Part shown: one piece after another, positions 39,013 through 58,793 of the stretch
Position numbering within the stretch: the stretch's first letter is position 1
How the letters are laid out: every line of letters starts with the position of its first letter
IMG/VR virus record: IMGVR_UViG_3300032265_002598
Location: 137,068-201,067 of that record
Length of the DNA stretch: 64,000 nt
Source: a virus
Taxonomy: Duplodnaviria; Caudoviricetes
Direction: 5' to 3' (one strand)
Program-made: the position numbers and the translations under genes
The notes under the pieces: model-generated
What the model was told of the DNA's origin: nothing
What the model saw: the letters and a program-made list of their open reading frames with translations, nothing else
Database searches by the model: none

Positions 39013-39942
39013 TTAGAGTACAGGTCTAATGATACCATAGCCCTCATATTTCTTTATTCCTGTATAATTCTGCTGATGCAGTTTCATGGCTTTTTTAGCA
39101 AAAACCGCCACATAATCGTCAGATGATTTTAGCATATTCTCAAGCATAGCAAATTTAATTTTTTTAGCAAACGATAAAAATAAAGCAGCACAGCCTACCG
39201 CAAATGGTGTTGCCATACTAGTTCCAGACATAGAAGCATAGGTATTCCCAGGTACAGCACTAATAATATCTGCTCCCGGTGCCAAGAAGTCAAGTTCTTC
39301 TCCACAGCAACTAAATGAACAAATATTCAATCTCTCATCTACTGCACCAACGCTAATTGTATTATTATATTTTGCTGGATACTGAATTCCTGATTCTATA
39401 CCACTGTTTCCTGCTGCACAAAAAATTATTACATTTTTGTATTTAGCATATTCTATAGCTTTTTCTATCTGAATAGCAGGATACTCTGAACCAAGAGACA
39501 TAGTGATTAAATCTGCTTCGTGGTCAGCAGCCCACACAATAGCTTCAGCGACATTTTTATTAATACCTGACCCATCGGCCCCAAGTGCTTTAATAGGCAT
39601 GATCTTGGCTTGCGGAGCGACTCCTACCATGCCCACTCCATTGTTAACAGCAGCTATCGTACCAGCAACGTGAGTACCGTGACCATTATCATCTTGTGGT
39701 GGTTGATCTGGATCAATAAAATTATATCCATCTACAATATTATCTTTAATATCTTCATGATTTAAATCGCACCCAGTATCTATTACTGCTACAGTAACAC
39801 CCTCTCCTTGAGAATGTCTCCATTGTTGAGGAATGGAGAATTTATCAATGGGCCAACTATGAAACTGACTAGAACCTACCGACAAACCATAAATATCTTT
39901 TCTTGTGTGAGGTAAAAGCTTACATTGTTTCTTTTTTAACAT
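39013..39942 (-). CDS. Subtilisin-like serine protease (S8)
   Basis: Catalytic triad VAVIDTG, HGTHVAG, GTSMATP. Confidence 0.95.
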   Translation of the reverse strand: MLKKKQCKLLPHTRKDIYGLSVGSSQFHSWPIDKFSIPQQWRHSQGEGVTVAVIDTGCDLNHEDIKDNIVDGYNFIDPDQPPQDDNGHGTHVAGTIAAVNNGVGMVGVAPQAKIMPIKALGADGSGINKNVAEAIVWAADHEADLITMSLGSEYPAIQIEKAIEYAKYKNVIIFCAAGNSGIESGIQYPAKYNNTISVGAVDERLNICSFSCCGEELDFLAPGADIISAVPGNTYASMSGTSMATPFAVGCAALFLSFAKKIKFAMLENMLKSSDDYVAVFAKKAMKLHQQNYTGIKKYEGYGIIRPVL

Positions 39943-39944
39943 AA

Positions 39945-40685
39945 TTATTTCTTAATAATGTTTCTAATCCATGGAATATACATACTAATTCTTGTATGAC
40001 AACTTTCATCACCGTATGTTGAGTCTGGTTTACCATCATACCCCAATACTGAAGAATTTATACCAGCAAGTTTTCCATCTATAAAAAGACCGCCACCACT
40101 ATCTCCACTACAAATTAAATATTCAAGTTCTGTGATTTTTTGGCTGGGTTTGGAAGCATTACAGACTAAAGTTCCTCTTTCTATTTTTGTAATATAGTTA
40201 GATCCAGCTCTTTTTTTACCATCAAAAATATTTACTCCAGTATTGAAATTTCCAGTAAGTCCAACACCAGCAATAGCAGCTATTTTTCCAACTTCATCTG
40301 AATCCTCATATAACTCTGGATAAGGAGACATATCTACTTGTTCTGAGATGTGACCTACTGCTATATCATAATATCCAAAAATATTGTCACTATATTTTTC
40401 ATGACAAATAATAGAATCTAAATTGTATTTTTTATCATCAACAATTATTTGATGATCTTTCATATTTTTTACAACATGAGCTGCTGTTATTATCCAATTA
40501 TTATCTACTATTACAGCAGAACCCGCTGCTTGTCCATTACCATCATAGCAAACAATTTTAACAGTATGTTTAAATTTAGATCCATATTCTATATATTTAG
40601 AGTCTTCAACATTGGGATCAATTGTCCCAGCGAAAGAATTTGAAAGAAATAAAAAAACACCCAGAAGAAAAATTAAGCTTTTCAT
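39945..40685 (-). CDS. Trypsin-like serine protease (S1) with signal peptide
   Basis: ITAAH, YDIAV, GDSGG; N-terminal MKSLIFLLGVFLFLSNSFA. Confidence 0.92.
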   Translation of the reverse strand: MKSLIFLLGVFLFLSNSFAGTIDPNVEDSKYIEYGSKFKHTVKIVCYDGNGQAAGSAVIVDNNWIITAAHVVKNMKDHQIIVDDKKYNLDSIICHEKYSDNIFGYYDIAVGHISEQVDMSPYPELYEDSDEVGKIAAIAGVGLTGNFNTGVNIFDGKKRAGSNYITKIERGTLVCNASKPSQKITELEYLICSGDSGGGLFIDGKLAGINSSVLGYDGKPDSTYGDESCHTRISMYIPWIRNIIKK

Positions 40686-40712
40686 GGGTCATTCCTTTGA
40701 CGGATATGTAAA

Positions 40713-41045
40713 CTAAGGTCTATTTTTAACCTTATTTAAATACACCGAACAATCTTCTATGACCGATTTATTATAACTCTTAAAGTTCATTAAATGACCA
40801 AATAGAAAGTGGCATGGGTCTGCACACAAAGTCACAAGATTTGAAGGATCAAGTTCTAGCTCTGGACTAATATGAACTGGGGTTTTATGATGAACTTCTA
40901 ATTTTTTATCTCTACCACAAGCAATACAATATGGATTTTCTTTTAAGTGTTGTTTTCTTACATTACTCCATTTTGGAGATCGTACTGCAAACCTAATTTT
41001 ATTCAGGAAATTAAACATTATAATACCTTTGCAGCAATTAAACAT
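40713..41045 (-). CDS. HNH endonuclease
   Basis: PYCIACG...EVHH...NLVTLC..CHFLFGH. Confidence 0.82.
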   Translation of the reverse strand: MFNCCKGIIMFNFLNKIRFAVRSPKWSNVRKQHLKENPYCIACGRDKKLEVHHKTPVHISPELELDPSNLVTLCADPCHFLFGHLMNFKSYNKSVIEDCSVYLNKVKNRP

Positions 41046-42019
41046 CCTTTAGCAACAGCGTGTAAGGGGTCTGCCGCATGTCTGACTTCTTTAATTTGCA
41101 ACGGAAATCCATTTTCTTCTAATTTTTTAGCAAACTCCTTAATATATCCGTTAGCTTGAGAAGTACCACCGGCTACCACAATAACCAAAGGATTTTTAAA
41201 TTTTGGTAATGATTTATGGTTTAATAAAGCATGGGCTAATTGTTTTGTAGTATAGTCTATTAGTCTCTCATAATAAGCTGACACAGCACCTAAAACTGGA
41301 TTATCATTAGGTTCACCAATCGTAAAACCCCCAGCCTCTTTCTCTGCCTGCACAACACTATCTGGTTCTCCTGTAGCAACAGAACTCATGCGATCAATCC
41401 AGTCTCCACTTTTGGTTGTGCTGAATACTACAGTAGGTTCGCCATTTAACATAACACAAACATTTGTCATACCAGCCCCACAACTAACAGCAATACCAGT
41501 ATAATCCTCAACTTCTAATTCAGCATAACAAAGAGCCTCTGCTTCATTAATAGCTTTAGCGCTATATCCACATTCAGCTAGAATAGTTTTGACTACATCT
41601 TCATGGTATCCGACATCAAAATCTTCATCTTCTTGATCTACTGGTTGAGCAGGGACGCAGAATACTAACTTTTCATTTTCTTCTTTAGCTTTACCCGCTA
41701 CTTCTTTCAAGATAAAAGCCAATATTTTTTTGGCATCTTTTTCTTTGGCAGATACTACGCCTTTATACATTGGTCTTTTAGCAGTATCATTTCTTTCTAT
41801 AGCTTTTTCAATAGCATCTTTACCTAATAGGATAAATGATCCATCAGTATCTTTAATAAAAACTTTTCCTGCTAATCCTTTCTCTATCATCTTTGTAGCA
41901 ACTGGTGTGGTTGGTTTGATAACATAAAAAGCATCTCTAAAATCTTTATAAACAATACTATTTTTATTTTCTTTTGATAATACTATGTAACTTGTACCAA
42001 CGTCTAATCCAGCTGCCAT
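41018..42019 (-). CDS. Actin-like ATPase, volactin/salactin-type
   Basis: Phosphate-1 GLDVGTS, connect-1 INEAEA, phosphate-2 SCGAGMTNV, adenosine VAGGTS, connect-2 PLHAVAKGCL. Confidence 0.9.
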   Translation of the reverse strand: MAAGLDVGTSYIVLSKENKNSIVYKDFRDAFYVIKPTTPVATKMIEKGLAGKVFIKDTDGSFILLGKDAIEKAIERNDTAKRPMYKGVVSAKEKDAKKILAFILKEVAGKAKEENEKLVFCVPAQPVDQEDEDFDVGYHEDVVKTILAECGYSAKAINEAEALCYAELEVEDYTGIAVSCGAGMTNVCVMLNGEPTVVFSTTKSGDWIDRMSSVATGEPDSVVQAEKEAGGFTIGEPNDNPVLGAVSAYYERLIDYTTKQLAHALLNHKSLPKFKNPLVIVVAGGTSQANGYIKEFAKKLEENGFPLQIKEVRHAADPLHAVAKGCLIAAKVL

Positions 42020-42022
42020 ATT

Positions 42023-42355
42023 TCACCTCTTCATATTTTTAAGTTTATTTATTGAAGTACTTATATCTTCTTCAGATTGATTGATTTCTCCCAAAGATTC
42101 GTACTTCTTTTCCATTCCAGATGTCTTAATATCAACCACATATTTAGTATCATCAATAGACACAACCGTTTTATCTTTTTTCGTTTCTTGAAAAAAACTT
42201 GTTGGTTTACTATTAATAACAGTATTACATACACCAGCATTAGATTGCTTACCAACAAAATAGCCGATTAAAAACAAACACACCCCTAAGATTAGGAGTG
42301 TGCTTGAGAAGAAAATAATAGTGGGTAAGTTTATTGATACTGATATTTCATTCAT
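42023..42355 (-). CDS. Single-pass membrane protein upstream of the actin gene
   Basis: TIIFFSSTLLILGVCLFLIGYFVG transmembrane segment; stops 3 nt before the actin start. Confidence 0.7.
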   Translation of the reverse strand: MNEISVSINLPTIIFFSSTLLILGVCLFLIGYFVGKQSNAGVCNTVINSKPTSFFQETKKDKTVVSIDDTKYVVDIKTSGMEKKYESLGEINQSEEDISTSINKLKNMKR

Positions 42356-43265
42356 GTTTATATGAGCCTATCACTCTTCCCTTTTGGGTTCTTACAGCAA
42401 AACCTTTTCGTACTAGATATGGTTCTATGCTATTCTCAATAGTGTCCATAGCAATTCCAGTTAAAGCTGAAATACTCTTTAGGCCCAATCCAGCACCTTT
42501 AGAATTAGCAAGCACCTTTAAATACATCTTATCATACACATCCAAACCGTCCTTATCAATGCCCTGACTATTAAAGATTTCATCCACACTCATCTTCTTC
42601 TCTGTATAATACGCACTACAATTCTTATACCATTGTAGTCTACCATTCAGAATTCTAGGAGTTCCCTTGCTTCTTTTAGCAATTTCTAGCAAATCTTCAT
42701 CACTAATATGTAAACCTAGTTTGTTAGCGTTCAATCCTGCTAGTTTAGCTAGATCAATTTCATTATAGAAAGACAAATGTTCTTTAATTTGAAATCTGTC
42801 ATAAAATGGCTGACTTAAAGATCCACCACTAGTTGTTGCTCCAACCAAAGTAAATACTGGCAACTCAATAGTCTCTGGCTTTTCTTTGTCTTGTTCATCT
42901 TTAACAGTAATATTTAGAACAAAATCTTCCATAACAGGATATAGAAATTCTTCGACAATTTTTGGTAGACGATGGATTTCATCAATAAATAAAACAGAAT
43001 GCTTTTCCATTCCCATAATATAGGGCAAAATATTTTTGATACCACGAACAGTGGCAGCATTGATGGTATATAGGTTGACTCCCATCTCAGTAGCTATAGC
43101 ACTGGCTATTGTAGTCTTTCCTAGCCCCGGTGGGCCGTCTATTAAAAGATGAGGCATCACACCACCAGAATTTTTACAACCAGCAACCACGATGTTTAAC
43201 CGTGTAATCACTTCTGACTGTCCAATAATTTCACTAAATCGCGTGGGACGAATTGCATTAGCCAT
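42348..43265 (-). CDS. ruvB: Holliday-junction branch-migration ATPase RuvB
   Basis: RPTRFSEIIGQ, HLLIDGPPGLGKTT, FIDEIHRL, GATT, DRF, GTPRI, EPYLVR..RTQKGR. Likely start is MANAIRP at 43265. Confidence 0.93.
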   Translation of the reverse strand: MANAIRPTRFSEIIGQSEVITRLNIVVAGCKNSGGVMPHLLIDGPPGLGKTTIASAIATEMGVNLYTINAATVRGIKNILPYIMGMEKHSVLFIDEIHRLPKIVEEFLYPVMEDFVLNITVKDEQDKEKPETIELPVFTLVGATTSGGSLSQPFYDRFQIKEHLSFYNEIDLAKLAGLNANKLGLHISDEDLLEIAKRSKGTPRILNGRLQWYKNCSAYYTEKKMSVDEIFNSQGIDKDGLDVYDKMYLKVLANSKGAGLGLKSISALTGIAMDTIENSIEPYLVRKGFAVRTQKGRVIGSYKHE

Positions 43266-43671
43266 TTTTTTCTCCAAAGTTTTTTAAAGCCTGTTTGATT
43301 AAATCAACGCAAATATAAGTAGGTGTTCTGTCAAAGGTTGAGACTATTAGTTTCTCAGCTTCACTAATATCAAAACCATATCCAAGTAAAATTGTACAAG
43401 ATTGTGTTAAAAGATCTAAAGGAATAGTTTCTTTCTTTTCCTCCGTTTCTGCTGCTAAAGATGACTTCTTTTGAGTCTGACTATAGATAATCTCATTTTT
43501 TTCTACTAGTTTTACCCTAAGTATCTCATTGCAGTCGCAGACTATTCTATATCCTTTTGTCTGTGCCTCTTTCATGGAAATCCAATGGTCTGAAGAACAT
43601 TTAGGACATCTATATTTTAGATGAACATCTTGATCAATCGGTCTCAGGCGTTTCTGTTTGATTGTTGGCAT
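43258..43671 (-). CDS. Zn-ribbon protein fused to a RuvA domain-III-like C terminus
   Basis: CPKC...CDC N-terminal; C-terminal LLGYGFDISEAEKLI...DLIKQALK matches RuvA domain III; immediately upstream of ruvB. Confidence 0.7.
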   Translation of the reverse strand: MPTIKQKRLRPIDQDVHLKYRCPKCSSDHWISMKEAQTKGYRIVCDCNEILRVKLVEKNEIIYSQTQKKSSLAAETEEKKETIPLDLLTQSCTILLGYGFDISEAEKLIVSTFDRTPTYICVDLIKQALKNFGEKNG

Positions 43672-44068
43672 CTTCTTTTACCCAAAAAATGAAATCGTTT
43701 TTTTCACTGTCGTATCCACTATCCAAAACCCCCTTGTTAACCAAGGTATTCAAAATATTGCTGACCATTCTTCCGTTCAAATCTTCTATAATCTCTCCTA
43801 AAATTTTATCAGTAAGTGAGTATCGAATTTCTTTACTTTTTTTATTGATTTGTTTTCTAGCATGATTCTTAATGATAACAGATGCTTCCTCATGACTTAG
43901 AGTAATATCCATCTCTTCTATTTCTTCTTTACTCATTATTGATAAAGAAGCTGTCAAAGAATCTGCTGCTACTTCATTAACTTGTCCAAATAAATTAAAA
44001 ACCAAAGCTCTTGAATGGTCAACAAATTCTTCAAAATTACTTATAAAAAACCATTTTTCATTCTTCAT
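43634..44068 (-). CDS. Hypothetical protein (paralog family with 59015 and 59379)
   Basis: C-terminal LVNKGVLDSGYDSEKNDFIFW. Confidence 0.6.
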   Translation of the reverse strand: MKNEKWFFISNFEEFVDHSRALVFNLFGQVNEVAADSLTASLSIMSKEEIEEMDITLSHEEASVIIKNHARKQINKKSKEIRYSLTDKILGEIIEDLNGRMVSNILNTLVNKGVLDSGYDSEKNDFIFWVKEDANNQTETPETD

Positions 44069-44304
44069 TATACTAATGTTTCACCCTCGTACTTGGGGAT
44101 TGTTGTCCATTCCAGTTTAGCAGAAAAAGCTGTTTTGTAAACCACTACTGTTCTATCGGTTTTCTTGTCTTTCTCCATTACCTTTAGAGGAATTCTTCTA
44201 TCTTGATTAACAGAATTTTCTATAAAGAGAATAGTGTCCGACATTGTATCACAGACTTTACTTACAGTTTTATCATTAAAATATATCTCAAAATATGTGG
44301 TCAT
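44068..44304 (-). CDS. Hypothetical protein
   Basis: Packed ORF. Confidence 0.5.
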   Translation of the reverse strand: MTTYFEIYFNDKTVSKVCDTMSDTILFIENSVNQDRRIPLKVMEKDKKTDRTVVVYKTAFSAKLEWTTIPKYEGETLV

Positions 44305-44555
44305 TATTTTTTATTAATCTCCGTTTGACAATTGTTGTGTTTGTCCACGAAAGTTCTTTCAAATCCTAGCTCCGCTAAAATTGGCATCTTATAAAAAGTA
44401 ATAGTAAATCTTACATTATTATCATCATCTGTCATTTTTGTCCATTCTACTCTTTGTGCTTTGCTCATATGAGTTGCTAGATCATATGCAACAAAAGGAG
44501 TTTCAGTCAATGAACTGAAGAACATAGCCACATACAATAGTGCTGCTGGTAACAT
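44304..44555 (-). CDS. Hypothetical protein with signal-like N terminus
   Basis: MLPAALLYVAMFFSS. Confidence 0.5.
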   Translation of the reverse strand: MLPAALLYVAMFFSSLTETPFVAYDLATHMSKAQRVEWTKMTDDDNNVRFTITFYKMPILAELGFERTFVDKHNNCQTEINKK

Positions 44556-44564
44556 CCTTGTCCT

Positions 44565-44981
44565 CTAATTAAGTATGTCGAACATACCCATATAATAGTT
44601 TGGTTGCGAAAGAAAATGAACCGCGTGTGATACTAAGTGATTTCTATACGCCACATCTAAATTGTTATGTATAAAGTATTTGGTTTTATAGACTGGTTCT
44701 TTATAATGATTGTTCCCCAAAAACAGGGAGTTTTTAAAGTTCCCTGATTTGGAGAAGTAATCATTCACAGGTAACGAACCTTTATCGAATCCATGTCCAA
44801 TATACCAGACATTAGAAGGATATTCAACTATGTCATTTAAAGCTTCGTATAGCATTTTACCCCAAGCATCCCATGCACTAGGATCAAACTTGAAATAGTT
44901 TTTATGCTGACTCTCTAAATTGTCCTGACTACTATCTTCATAGTCATCATCGTAGTTGTAATCTTCGTCTTGTTGTCCCAT
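44565..44981 (-). CDS. Hypothetical protein
   Basis: Acidic N terminus; packed ORF. Confidence 0.5.
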   Translation of the reverse strand: MGQQDEDYNYDDDYEDSSQDNLESQHKNYFKFDPSAWDAWGKMLYEALNDIVEYPSNVWYIGHGFDKGSLPVNDYFSKSGNFKNSLFLGNNHYKEPVYKTKYFIHNNLDVAYRNHLVSHAVHFLSQPNYYMGMFDILN

Positions 44982-44988
44982 AAAATTC

Positions 44989-45267
44989 TCAATTTTCTAT
45001 ATTAGACCATCTTGATCCAGTAGTGGCAATTACATTTGTTCTTGTTGGTTTTCTTCCTCTTCTTGCTCCTTTAAATCCTAATCGACGTATAACATGACAC
45101 ATAGTTTGATATCCGTTATAGAATTTAATGCCTCTAAAACCATTGTTTTTTATGTGTTCATATACATCGAAAGAACAATTGTATTTCTTCATCAGTTCAA
45201 CAAATTCTTGTTTTGCTGATTCATCATCAAGCAACATCTGCGTTAATTTATTAGTATGTCTACCCAT
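44989..45267 (-). CDS. Small basic hypothetical protein
   Basis: AAGGAG RBS; Arg/Lys-rich RRLGFKGARRGRK. Confidence 0.6.
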   Translation of the reverse strand: MGRHTNKLTQMLLDDESAKQEFVELMKKYNCSFDVYEHIKNNGFRGIKFYNGYQTMCHVIRRLGFKGARRGRKPTRTNVIATTGSRWSNIEN

Positions 45268-45288
45268 TTGTTTTCTCCTTATGTGGTT

Positions 45289-45325
45289 GTGTCAAAGGGT
45301 ATGGAGTCTCCAATACCCCTGACAC
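45289..45325. other. Long imperfect inverted repeat directly downstream of the primase gene
   Basis: GTGTCA..GGGTAT.GGAG / CTCC.ATACCC.TGACAC; no U-tract. Confidence 0.7.
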
Positions 45326-45332
45326 TAAACCC

Positions 45333-46484
45333 TCACCCGATACAAAACTTGTCACTAATTTGAGAAGCAAGGTCTTTAGCAGAGTTGGACAAGAATCTAT
45401 TGTTGCTAAAGTAAAGCGGCGTTGAGACTTGATTAAGGAACTCCACGACCGTTTTTAAAAGCTTGGTCTGCTGACCGTCCAGACTCATATCTTCGTCCTC
45501 TACGGGCATCCTATCGTCTACCAGAGCATCCTCATCTTGGATGGGTTGAACTGGCATTGGATCGCCATAAGCCTTTTGAAAAACTGTACTCTTAGTATAA
45601 CCATAAACATCCTTATAGGATTCTGTACTATTGTTATAGTTCTCAGGATTTGAAACTCTCATTTGATTAAGAATTTCTGTGGCAACATTTACTGACACTG
45701 GAACTCCCGTAATGTCAGACTTCTTATAAGCCTTAGCATATTCCTTAAACCACTCATCGCTAGTCTTATTAGCAATAATATTGACCACAGCAGAAACACC
45801 ATCAAGAGCCTGCTTCAGTTGCTCAATATTTACTGGATTGCCAGTTGATCCTGACAAAATACTAGTAAAGTAAGGTTGCTTACCCTCCCAACCTTTTCTC
45901 CACCAAGTATAAGGAATACGATAAATCTGATTAATCTTAATAGCTCTGGCATCACCACCAAAATGATTTACCAGTTTCTTTTGAATACCGCTCCAATAAG
46001 TCTTATGAGGACTATTGGTATTTTGATTTAGAATCCAATAGCACTGATAGCCATTACGAGTATCAACAACCCAGCTTGGTTTTACTGGAAAGTTATTGAT
46101 CTTATTTAAGAACTCCCGCTTCTTTTGCATAACAATGCTAGGCTTTAAATAGCTACCCTGCTCATCTCGTCCAGCGTCCATATCAACAAAACAAGCACGA
46201 ACCCTGCTAATAGCATATTGCTTACGTCCACCATTAACATAGAAGTAAGCATCAGCACCTTGACTATCGTTTGCAATAGCAACAGTAGTAAGATTGTCCG
46301 TATGGTTCATGCTACTGATCTTCTTACGAGGATCGCCATTGTAGCAAAAAATCTGTTGACTACCCAAAGACTCAAAAAACTTATTCCTCAAAGTAATTTG
46401 ATCTCTTGTTCCAATAGCACTATGAGTCTTATCGAACGGATTAAAAGCCAAAGTATCACTAAACATTTGTTTTCCTTTTTCCAA
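45333..46484 (-). CDS. RepB'-like (AEP superfamily) DNA primase
   Basis: ACFVDMD, KPSWVVDTRNGYQCYWIL, GGD..I..IYRIP. Confidence 0.75.
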   Translation of the reverse strand: MEKGKQMFSDTLAFNPFDKTHSAIGTRDQITLRNKFFESLGSQQIFCYNGDPRKKISSMNHTDNLTTVAIANDSQGADAYFYVNGGRKQYAISRVRACFVDMDAGRDEQGSYLKPSIVMQKKREFLNKINNFPVKPSWVVDTRNGYQCYWILNQNTNSPHKTYWSGIQKKLVNHFGGDARAIKINQIYRIPYTWWRKGWEGKQPYFTSILSGSTGNPVNIEQLKQALDGVSAVVNIIANKTSDEWFKEYAKAYKKSDITGVPVSVNVATEILNQMRVSNPENYNNSTESYKDVYGYTKSTVFQKAYGDPMPVQPIQDEDALVDDRMPVEDEDMSLDGQQTKLLKTVVEFLNQVSTPLYFSNNRFLSNSAKDLASQISDKFCIG

Positions 46485-52608: not shown

Positions 52609-52883
52609 TAGGAGCGGTGAGAATCGAACTCACACTGGATGGATTTTCTTACCACTATAGTTTTCACTACCATTTCTGTTTGTGGTCTGGACTTTATCTT
52701 AACCATAACTTTCGTTTTAGGTTCCTGCCGTTAAGTCTCTACACCTTCTTAATATTTCTATTAAGCTTGGCTCGGTATTAGCAGTTAAGCCTTCACCGAA
52801 TTTGACAAGTTCTACATTAAAGATTTCTCTCTAAGCACTCAAATTGTATAAGTCCACTGTCTCTGCCGTTGGACTACGCTCCC
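52609..52883 (-). tRNA. trnL: tRNA-Leu(UAA) split by a group I intron (exon 1 52850..52883, exon 2 52609..52647)
   Basis: Spliced sequence GGGAGCG TA GTCCAACGGCAGAGAC A GTGGA CTTAAAA TCCAT CCAGT GTGAG TTCGATT CTCAC CGCTCCT A folds as a cloverleaf with A73; CCA not encoded. Confidence 0.92.
52648..52849 (-). mobile_element. Group I intron (IC3-like), 202 nt, no ORF
   Basis: Inserted after U34. P1 ACUU/GAGU with U.G at the splice site; P AAATTCGGTGAA, Q TAATACCGAGCCAAG, R GTAGAGACTTAACGG, S AAGATAAAGTCC; terminal G; GAAA-capped P2/P8/P9 helices. Confidence 0.92.
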
Positions 52884-58162: not shown

Positions 58163-58170
58163 AATATAAG

Positions 58171-58519
58171 TGGACTAGGGCAGAGTCGAACTGCCGTCCA
58201 GAATAAACATCAATATAAACTTCTACATCGTTAGTTGGTTGTTATCACACTACCAACAAAGCTATCAGAATTATCTGCGTCAGATTGAGTACAATCATCA
58301 GTCCCATTTATGTCTGGTAGGACTACCATATCCGAATATCGGAGTCAGCATGATTTGGTAATAAGGCTCATGCCGCCCCACTCATTACCTAATTAATTAG
58401 GCAGCGAGAGCAAGAGATGTCTTGCCAATTAACAATTTGAATACCTTTTATACTGGCCCAGTATTCAACCAGTCGATGCGATCTATACCTAGATTACCTG
58501 TCGATACCTTTACTAGCCC
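58171..58519 (-). ncRNA. ssrA: tmRNA (one-piece), tag (A)GKTSLALAA
   Basis: Acceptor GGGCTAG/CTAGTCC-A with G3.U70; T arm GGCAG-TTCGACT-CTGCC; tag ORF GGC AAG ACA TCT CTT GCT CTC GCT GCC TAA at 58426..58397; 349 nt. Confidence 0.93.
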
Positions 58520-58701: not shown

Positions 58702-58717
58702 ATTAAATCCTTTTAAG

Positions 58718-58793
58718 TAGGGCGTGTCTGAGTCGAACAGACCTATGAACACCTTATAAGAGTGTCGGATGCAACCGGCTTACCTTACGCCCC
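58718..58793 (-). tRNA. trnI: tRNA-Ile(UAU)
   Basis: GGGGCGT/ACGCCCT acceptor, ACACT-CTTATAA-GGTGT anticodon arm, GTCTG-TTCGACT-CAGAC T arm, A73. Confidence 0.88.

Follow-up and report, generated by a model that had tools for sequence, protein, structure and literature searches.

What does a tailed phage do with an actin of its own, and what is the role of the small membrane protein encoded directly in front of it? These questions are raised by a stretch of 64,000 nucleotides (hereafter the window) that forms the final 64 kb of a 201,067-bp virus record (IMG/VR record IMGVR_UViG_3300032265_002598, positions 137,068 to 201,067). On its minus strand, an actin homologue of 333 amino acids (aa) is encoded just downstream of a 110-aa protein with a single transmembrane helix, referred to below as the partner. 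We lean towards the view that the two constitute an actin filament module that the phage encodes and anchors in the membrane, in which the anchor would bind the filament through its C-terminal amphipathic helix. The genes and elements concerned, as read directly or as delimited by hydropathy, alignments, substitution rates and AlphaFold2 (AF2) models, are the following:

41018-42019, minus strand: volactin-family actin homologue, 333 aa (Pfam PF25216)
42023-42355, minus strand: partner, 110-aa single-pass membrane protein of no known family
42245-42328, minus strand: transmembrane helix of the partner, residues 10-37, ending in GY-x-x-G-[KR] (hydropathy peak 2.58; AF2 pLDDT, the predicted local distance difference test, >90)
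42026-42166, minus strand: cytoplasmic tail of the partner, residues 64-110 (alignments, substitution rates)
42026-42064, minus strand: C-terminal amphipathic basic helix, residues 98-110, candidate actin-binding peptide (AF2 helix 98-109)
42023-42031, minus strand: AAGAGG-TGA, Shine-Dalgarno-like site of the actin gene (read directly)

The actin and its partner protein

The original prediction, drawn from the DNA letters alone, had placed the actin and transmembrane open reading frames (ORFs), and the 3-nt gap between them, where a direct reading of the sequence finds them, and had likened the actin to haloarchaeal volactin and salactin. The volactin half of this comparison stands: the protein matches the Pfam Volactin model (PF25216) with an E-value of 5.4e-62 and 210.6 bits, for a cut-off of 35, over residues 1-330 and model positions 1-321 of 321, and a six-frame search of the genome gives the same match. 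The salactin half does not, as Salactin (PF25229) was not matched at E<=0.01 by the query and was reached only below threshold by its relatives. Pfam gave no ParM, StbA, FtsA or Actin match for the 333-aa protein and only a partial one to MreB_Mbl (PF06723; 31.6 bits, residues 57-209). A sequence search of the PDB reached no more than E 0.075 with BeeR and E ~0.9 with MreB sequences, and PHROGs holds no family for either the actin or the partner.

The cellular distribution of the family was judged from a plasmid collection and from Atlas labels. In the former, tblastn matched haloarchaeal replicons only (from Haloarcula, Halogeometricum and Natrinema), which were 34-35% identical along 99% of the query, with E-values of 1e-53 to 1e-55; the Haloarcula homologue itself scores 447 bits on PF25216. 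The family is large, with 938 clusters at 50% identity having E<=1e-3, and the Atlas labels include viral, bacterial and archaeal clusters. Single-protein scans of IMG/VR with distant representatives of the family returned 0-1 loci each. A FastTree phylogeny was built from 97 sequences and rooted on E. coli MreB. There the query belongs to an 18-tip clade (support 0.98) whose other members are IMG/VR sequences and phage-like metagenomic ones; the actins of the huge phages LR745208 and LR756511 belong to a second clade of 20 tips, and the haloarchaeal proteins lie elsewhere.

The actin motifs that had been pointed out are real. Across 43 diverse members of the family, D6, G8, S179, G181, G183, N186, D206, D209, G284 and G285 do not vary, T9 and T286 hardly do, and E159 is invariant or nearly so; the nucleotide-binding residues are also invariant in a 12-member alignment. 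The family pattern D-x-G-T, S-x-G-A-G-M-x-N, S-G-D-W-I-D and G-G-T-S is thus present, and its second element, the phosphate-2 motif, carries a Ser where D-x-G-x-G-T has Asp, a variant that is common to haloarchaeal volactin-type proteins. Selection on the actin is strongly purifying: its ratio of nonsynonymous to synonymous substitution rates (dN/dS) is ~0.06, with near-saturated dS (here and for the partner, values that were artefacts of aligning sequences of different lengths were dropped: L008 for the actin, L022 for the transmembrane helix and linker). We know of no solved structure of a volactin. The AF2 model of the phage protein has a pLDDT of 96.5 and a predicted template modelling score of 0.93, and the best PDB folds retrieved with it by Foldseek are MamK (5ljv), MreB (1jce) and BeeR, with template modelling scores of 0.68-0.73 at 14-20% identity; the MreB-RodZ structure 2wus is also among the matches, and EutJ, PilM and FtsA follow at lower rank. 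From sequence and predicted fold together, the 333-aa protein is a phage-encoded volactin-type actin of the filament-forming class, and not a salactin.

The partner has no Pfam family, its 390 homologues are all unannotated, and its look-alikes in the Atlas are at chance level only. It had been described as a transmembrane protein with a short tail; hydropathy and AF2 bear out the helix, while the tail, of ~73 aa, is not very short. The GY-x-x-G-[KR] motif at the end of the transmembrane helix is preserved among relatives, residues 38-97 are poorly ordered in the AF2 model, and the tail carries the succession I-D-x-x-K-x-V-x-x-I-x-T ... E-K-K-Y-x-x-L-G ... N-K-L-K-N-M-K-R. In the terminal helix, whose core is K-L-x-x-[LM]-K, K104 and L105 are invariant in the alignments, and the strict C-terminal motif occurs once in the whole phage proteome (62,720 aa), in the partner itself. 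The protein as a whole diverges faster than its neighbours, with identities to the query across related loci of 35-78%, versus 61-87% for RuvB and 82-92% for the actin. This divergence is uneven, dN/dS being 0.06-0.34 in the tail versus 0.18 to ~1 in the transmembrane helix and linker, again with near-saturated dS. The low ratio of the tail indicates strong purifying selection on the protein itself, beyond any constraint from its overlap with a ribosome-binding site. Such a pattern is what one would expect of a short binding element carried by a flexible tether.

The two genes appear to be translationally coupled, judging from their arrangement. The stop of the upstream RuvB gene overlaps the partner start by 8 nt, as read from the sequence, and the AAGAGG of the actin's Shine-Dalgarno-like site coincides with the last two sense codons of the partner (AAG AGG), which are followed by its TGA stop. 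A terminator-like hairpin (42275-42306, minus strand; 14 pairs, 6 of them G-C, then a T-run) lies where the partner gene codes for its transmembrane helix; it may have arisen by chance or may be an attenuator preceding the actin gene.

Other members of the family show additional features. Inteins with C...HN|C/S junctions are carried by at least 12 of the 150 best volactin-family representatives (P0121, P0132, P0139, P0186, P0197, P0209, P0230, P0233, P0238, P0242, P0248 and P0262), two of which match Pfam Intein_splicing and LAGLIDADG. At least three insertion sites are used, within the phosphate-2 loop or just before S-G-D-W-I-D, corresponding to residues 179/180, 181-186 and 203/204 of the window protein, whose Cys180 is the +1 position of the commonest site. 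We are not aware of any report of inteins in actin homologues. Three other relatives (P0141, P0169 and P0175) have an N-terminal helix-turn-helix (HTH) domain of ParB type, and one ParB-HTH relative is fused to a module resembling Wzz and tyrosine kinases (GNVR, ParA-like ATPase), which hints at both DNA-linked and envelope-linked uses of the volactin family in cells.

Linkage, gain and loss of the pair

The linkage of actin and partner is nearly universal among related loci. In a first set of 80 IMG/VR loci, with actins 82-99% identical to that of the window, every locus (80/80) has a homologue of the partner in front of the actin; 74 of these partners are within 21 nt of it and 4 are set apart by an insertion of ~610 nt. 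A second set of 80 loci, with actins 53-87% identical, shows a small partner-like ORF upstream in 79/80, bringing the total to 159/160. The ORFs of this second set share a hydrophobic N-terminus ending in G-Y-x-x-G-[KR], the motif I-D-x-x-K-x-V-T-x-I-x-T and a C-terminal K-L-x-x-[LMF]-K-[KRG]. The C-terminal motif recurs even in partners of actins that are only 40-57% identical to the query: among those with actins 40-53% identical, the partners end in INKLKELKKR (L086), ADKLKKMLKRR (L088), IDKLRQLKK (L096) and VEKLRKLLGR (L098). The N-termini of these distant partners consist of a transmembrane helix, except that L088 and L096 have a basic segment instead, which is Trp-rich in L096.

The pair stands among RuvB, rII and protease genes, in a tight row on the minus strand that runs from a RuvA-like gene through RuvB, partner, actin and HNH genes to a trypsin-like protease and a subtilase gene. 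Besides the pair, this row consists of:

43258-43671, minus strand: RuvA-like ORF
42348-43277, minus strand: RuvB-like AAA+ ATPase (Pfam RuvB_N, lid, RuvB_C)
40713-41045, minus strand: HNH endonuclease, mobile passenger (Pfam HNH)
39945-40685, minus strand: trypsin-like serine protease with N-terminal signal peptide (Pfam Trypsin)
39013-39942, minus strand: subtilase (S8) protease (Pfam Peptidase_S8, 197 bits)

The RuvB, HNH and trypsin genes shift or vanish among relatives, and the partner remains in front of the actin. The HNH gene, whose likely start is the ATG of a TAATG overlapping the actin stop, is found in 45 of the 80 loci of the first set, at a site that varies: downstream of the actin, between RuvB and protease, or further off. 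In 76/80, RuvB is found at most 4 kb upstream of the actin. The position of the pair downstream of RuvB, as originally described, is correct in the window; RuvB is nonetheless a frequent but not an obligatory neighbour, and its linkage is looser than that of the partner. This was seen in a RuvB-anchored survey of 60 loci with at least 4.5 kb of downstream sequence, 41 of which have both partner and actin; one of the 60, L238, shows its actin at the locus edge only. In 17 of the 60, actin is absent within 5 kb and so is the partner, yet HNH and trypsin-like genes are retained.

Two further loci are decay states of the module. In L206 (4789-5843), the partner is followed by an actin cut after residue 246, which has lost its G-G-T-S and runs straight into the subtilase gene, and in L241 (1911-2993) an intact partner precedes an unrelated 250-aa gene in place of the actin. 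The contigs behind two more loci, L199 and L215 (G001 and G002), are ~153 kb long and rated complete; in these related phages RuvB (73-75% identity), HNH and the trypsin-like protease are shared and a volactin gene is missing. The joint absence of the pair from the 17 RuvB loci and from these 153-kb relatives indicates that it is an accessory module whose two genes come and go together. Lineage members of 200-250 kb typically have it, and it may go with larger genomes.

The phage itself is a tailed jumbo phage of a freshwater, uncultured and very abundant lineage, represented by 536 IMG/VR loci and 1,827 protein clusters. The record behind the window has direct terminal repeats of 123 bp, is rated 100% complete, and codes for a large terminase, tail fibres and RIIA. 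Three further elements were mapped in the window, including a transfer-messenger RNA (tmRNA):

58168-58519, minus strand: tmRNA (RF00023, 84 bits, tag GKTSLALAA)
58717-58793, minus strand: tRNA-Ile(TAT)
52666-52859, minus strand: group I intron

Since tmRNA is characteristic of bacteria, the virus has a bacterial host and is a jumbo bacteriophage rather than an archaeal virus. No tubulin-family gene was found in the phage genome, so that the actin is its sole recognisable cytomotive filament protein.

Protease fusion and known counterparts

A clue to the surroundings of the module comes from five loci, from five different metagenomes, in which the trypsin-like protease and the partner are joined in one in-frame ORF of 382 aa (L044, L045 and L052; L058 and L059). 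The order of the fusion is signal peptide, protease domain, linker, transmembrane helix, and a cytoplasmic tail ending in KLKNMKG, and in L058 and L059 there is no Met between the protease domain and the transmembrane helix. Such an arrangement sets the topology of the partner, with its N-terminus out and its tail in; it also ties the anchor to a periplasmic enzyme, and hence links the module to the envelope.

Peptidase genes also flank distant phage volactin genes. In L086 (6363-8751), where the actin is 53% identical, trypsin and S8 genes lie beside the volactin gene in the same order as in the window; Trypsin_2, M42 and M24 genes do so in L098 (268-2565, 4108-4902), and a ClpP-like gene in L097 (2468-3001). 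This may be coincidence or a recurring association of actin and protease.

Among known systems, the closest in family is that of Haloferax, whose volactin filaments are dynamic and contact the membrane by their tips only, their binding factors being unknown (PMC10869688, Schiller et al.). The volactin HVO_2015 (VolA) adjoins the CdpA-like HVO_2016, and volactin was present in a CdpA pull-down (PMC12126565). Consistently, each of the haloarchaeal homologues is preceded by a co-oriented protein of ~300 aa with four transmembrane helices, of the CdpA-like DUF7139 family (PF23600, 124-139 bits), whose acidic cytoplasmic tail contains V-x-x-x-V-x-G-L-[RK]-x-L-[RKQ]-G-G. The phage pair resembles VolA/HVO_2016 in that its actin belongs to the same Pfam family over the full length and has the same variant nucleotide-binding motifs, and in having an upstream, co-oriented transmembrane anchor, followed by a disordered linker in the cytoplasm and, at the C-terminus, a short conserved element. 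It differs in the phage partner having one transmembrane helix instead of four and no DUF7139, and in its actin forming a separate clade, in a phage of a bacterial host, where volactin's role in cell shape need not apply. A direct hhalign comparison of the phage and archaeal partners gave as top alignment a pairing of the two K/R-L motifs, with E 0.11 and a probability of 0.5%. The shared architecture is a lead and not a demonstrated homology.

The huge phages LR745208 and LR756511 likewise combine a volactin-family actin with a small upstream partner ending in a basic helix, the C-terminal L-K-x-x-R-K motif of the LR745208 partner being similar to that of the window partner; in contrast to the latter, their partners have no transmembrane helix. 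The AlpC/AlpA system of the Corynebacterium glutamicum prophage CGP3 is alike in consisting of a phage actin and a small, co-transcribed adaptor gene upstream, and in being accessory rather than structural. However, AlpA is a DNA-binding protein that connects the phage DNA with the filaments, whereas the adaptor is here a membrane protein, binding-site repeats are missing, and the only Pfam matches of the phage actin are Volactin and, in part, MreB_Mbl. MreB-RodZ and MamK-MamJ, which provide the nearest solved folds, also tie a cytoplasmic actin through a bitopic protein to the far side of the membrane, but at 14-20% identity, with an unrelated and oppositely oriented partner, and with an elongasome or magnetosome gene context that is not seen here. 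Finally, PhuZ is a cytomotive filament encoded by jumbo phages, as the window actin would be, but belongs to another superfamily, that of tubulin.

Weighing the readings and what they mean

In the mechanism that we infer, the actin would most likely, by analogy with its archaeal namesake, bind ATP and, inside the infected bacterium, polymerise into dynamic filaments. The partner, translated from the same mRNA immediately ahead of the actin, would sit in the inner membrane, with a short N-terminal stub in the periplasm and its flexible tail in the cytoplasm. The terminal helix of this tail most likely docks onto the actin and so ties filaments to the membrane, to which they would probably be attached by their ends. 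The module would then organise something at the cell envelope rather than segregate DNA, an envelope role being favoured because the outward side of the partner is linked to a secreted trypsin-like protease. As to what the filament moves or shapes, the fusions point to the envelope, and the ranking of purposes that we infer places envelope-directed functions before positioning of DNA or replication factories, and the latter before a take-over of host shape or division.

Several observations weigh against this mechanism. The ribosome-binding site of the actin gene places a constraint of its own on the last two codons of the partner, and the C-terminal amphipathic basic helix could be a membrane-binding helix instead, the contact with actin, if any, lying elsewhere in the tail. 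The protease is not dependent on the filament, since relatives without actin keep it. The module is dispensable, as seen from the 153-kb relatives that do without it, from the truncated actin of L206 and from the L241 partner that has no adjacent actin, and the locus counts are not independent events, because most of the loci come from one phage lineage. In addition, a candidate relationship of the phage partner to the DUF7139/CdpA-like proteins found no statistical support, the partner having no Pfam match and the hhalign E-value being that given above.

Three other explanations have to be set beside a membrane-anchored, envelope-directed filament. In a DNA-positioning system of the AlpAC or ParMRC type, filaments would move or tether phage DNA or replication/recombination factories, with the membrane protein as a fixed end and the adjacency of RuvB as a functional clue. 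The coupling of partner and actin behind RuvB and the RuvA-like gene, the proximity of RuvB in most loci and the ParB-HTH domains of some cellular family members are in line with this possibility, as is the finding that the prophage actin AlpC and its co-transcribed adaptor AlpA are needed for efficient phage DNA replication (PMC4446434). The partner, however, has a transmembrane helix and no DNA-binding domain, and no centromere-like or iteron repeats, only short repeats at chance level, were found within ~2.5 kb of the pair (40500-45400), which argues against a classical ParMRC/AlpAC design. With a RuvB linkage that is much looser than that of the partner, and with glycosyltransferase or peptidase genes adjoining the pair instead in more distant phage relatives, DNA positioning seems unlikely; it was part of the original prediction, of which the coupling of an actin to a membrane protein is retained, while the DNA-binding adaptor or repeats that would accompany such a role were not found. 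Two of the outcomes named beforehand as refuting that prediction did not occur: the actin does not group with non-polymerising ASKHA enzymes, its nearest folds being polymerising actins, and the link to the transmembrane gene is conserved, in 159/160 loci.

Somewhat more doubtful still is a take-over of host shape or division, by a phage actin acting like or against host MreB or FtsA, for instance by enlarging the cell or blocking division for a jumbo virion, with a RodZ-like anchor. The partner shows no similarity to RodZ and has the opposite orientation, and no mreC, mreD, rodA or pbp2-like genes were found near the pair; the presence of the module in the 200-250 kb lineage, together with its absence from 153-kb relatives, would suit this explanation, but is a correlation drawn from a handful of contigs. 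Also in its favour are the role of volactin in the rod-to-disk shape change of Haloferax (PMC10869688), the weak local similarity to MreB, and the bitopic nature of the partner, which recalls RodZ, itself a binder of MreB in the 2wus structure matched by the model. Least probable of the three is that the actin is a non-polymerising ASKHA chaperone or ATPase and the membrane protein an unrelated one of holin, spanin or exclusion type, brought next to it by operon compaction. In its favour, EutJ, PilM and FtsA do figure at lower rank among the fold matches, and the phosphate-2 Ser replaces the usual Asp. Nevertheless, the nearest folds are all polymerising actins, the Ser variant is that of haloarchaeal volactin-type proteins, and the volactin of Haloferax polymerises in vivo (PMC10869688). 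An unrelated neighbour is also at odds with a pair that is kept together through the rearrangements moving RuvB, HNH and trypsin genes, that is lost together, and in which selection is concentrated on the cytoplasmic tail and not on the transmembrane helix.

The envelope-directed filament could be taken one step further, in a scheme that we put forward as a long shot: filaments held by the anchor helix would form a link across the inner membrane and position or move the periplasmic trypsin-like protease, and the phage would in this way remodel the host envelope at defined places or times, the K/R-L helix being an ancient volactin-binding peptide shared with the archaeal CdpA-like anchors. If true, this would be a viral counterpart of MreB steering wall enzymes through RodZ.

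Known phage cytoskeletons comprise PhuZ, the tubulin of nucleus-forming jumbo phages, and a small number of actin-like proteins including AlpC, and volactin has to our knowledge been studied so far in one haloarchaeon only. No paper was found in the literature on phage volactins, or on a phage-encoded volactin-type actin with a membrane anchor. The locus adds to this picture a distinct and very abundant freshwater clade of ~200-kb phages with volactin, an adaptor that crosses the membrane once and has a defined C-terminal peptide, the gain and loss of actin and partner as a unit, and the fusion of anchor and protease. The two proteins make up a compact and easily expressed system, whose candidate binding peptide is only ~12 residues long. 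It addresses how volactin-family filaments are anchored, whether phages organise the infected cell with actin as well as with tubulin, and whether a virus can couple a cytoplasmic filament to periplasmic enzymes.

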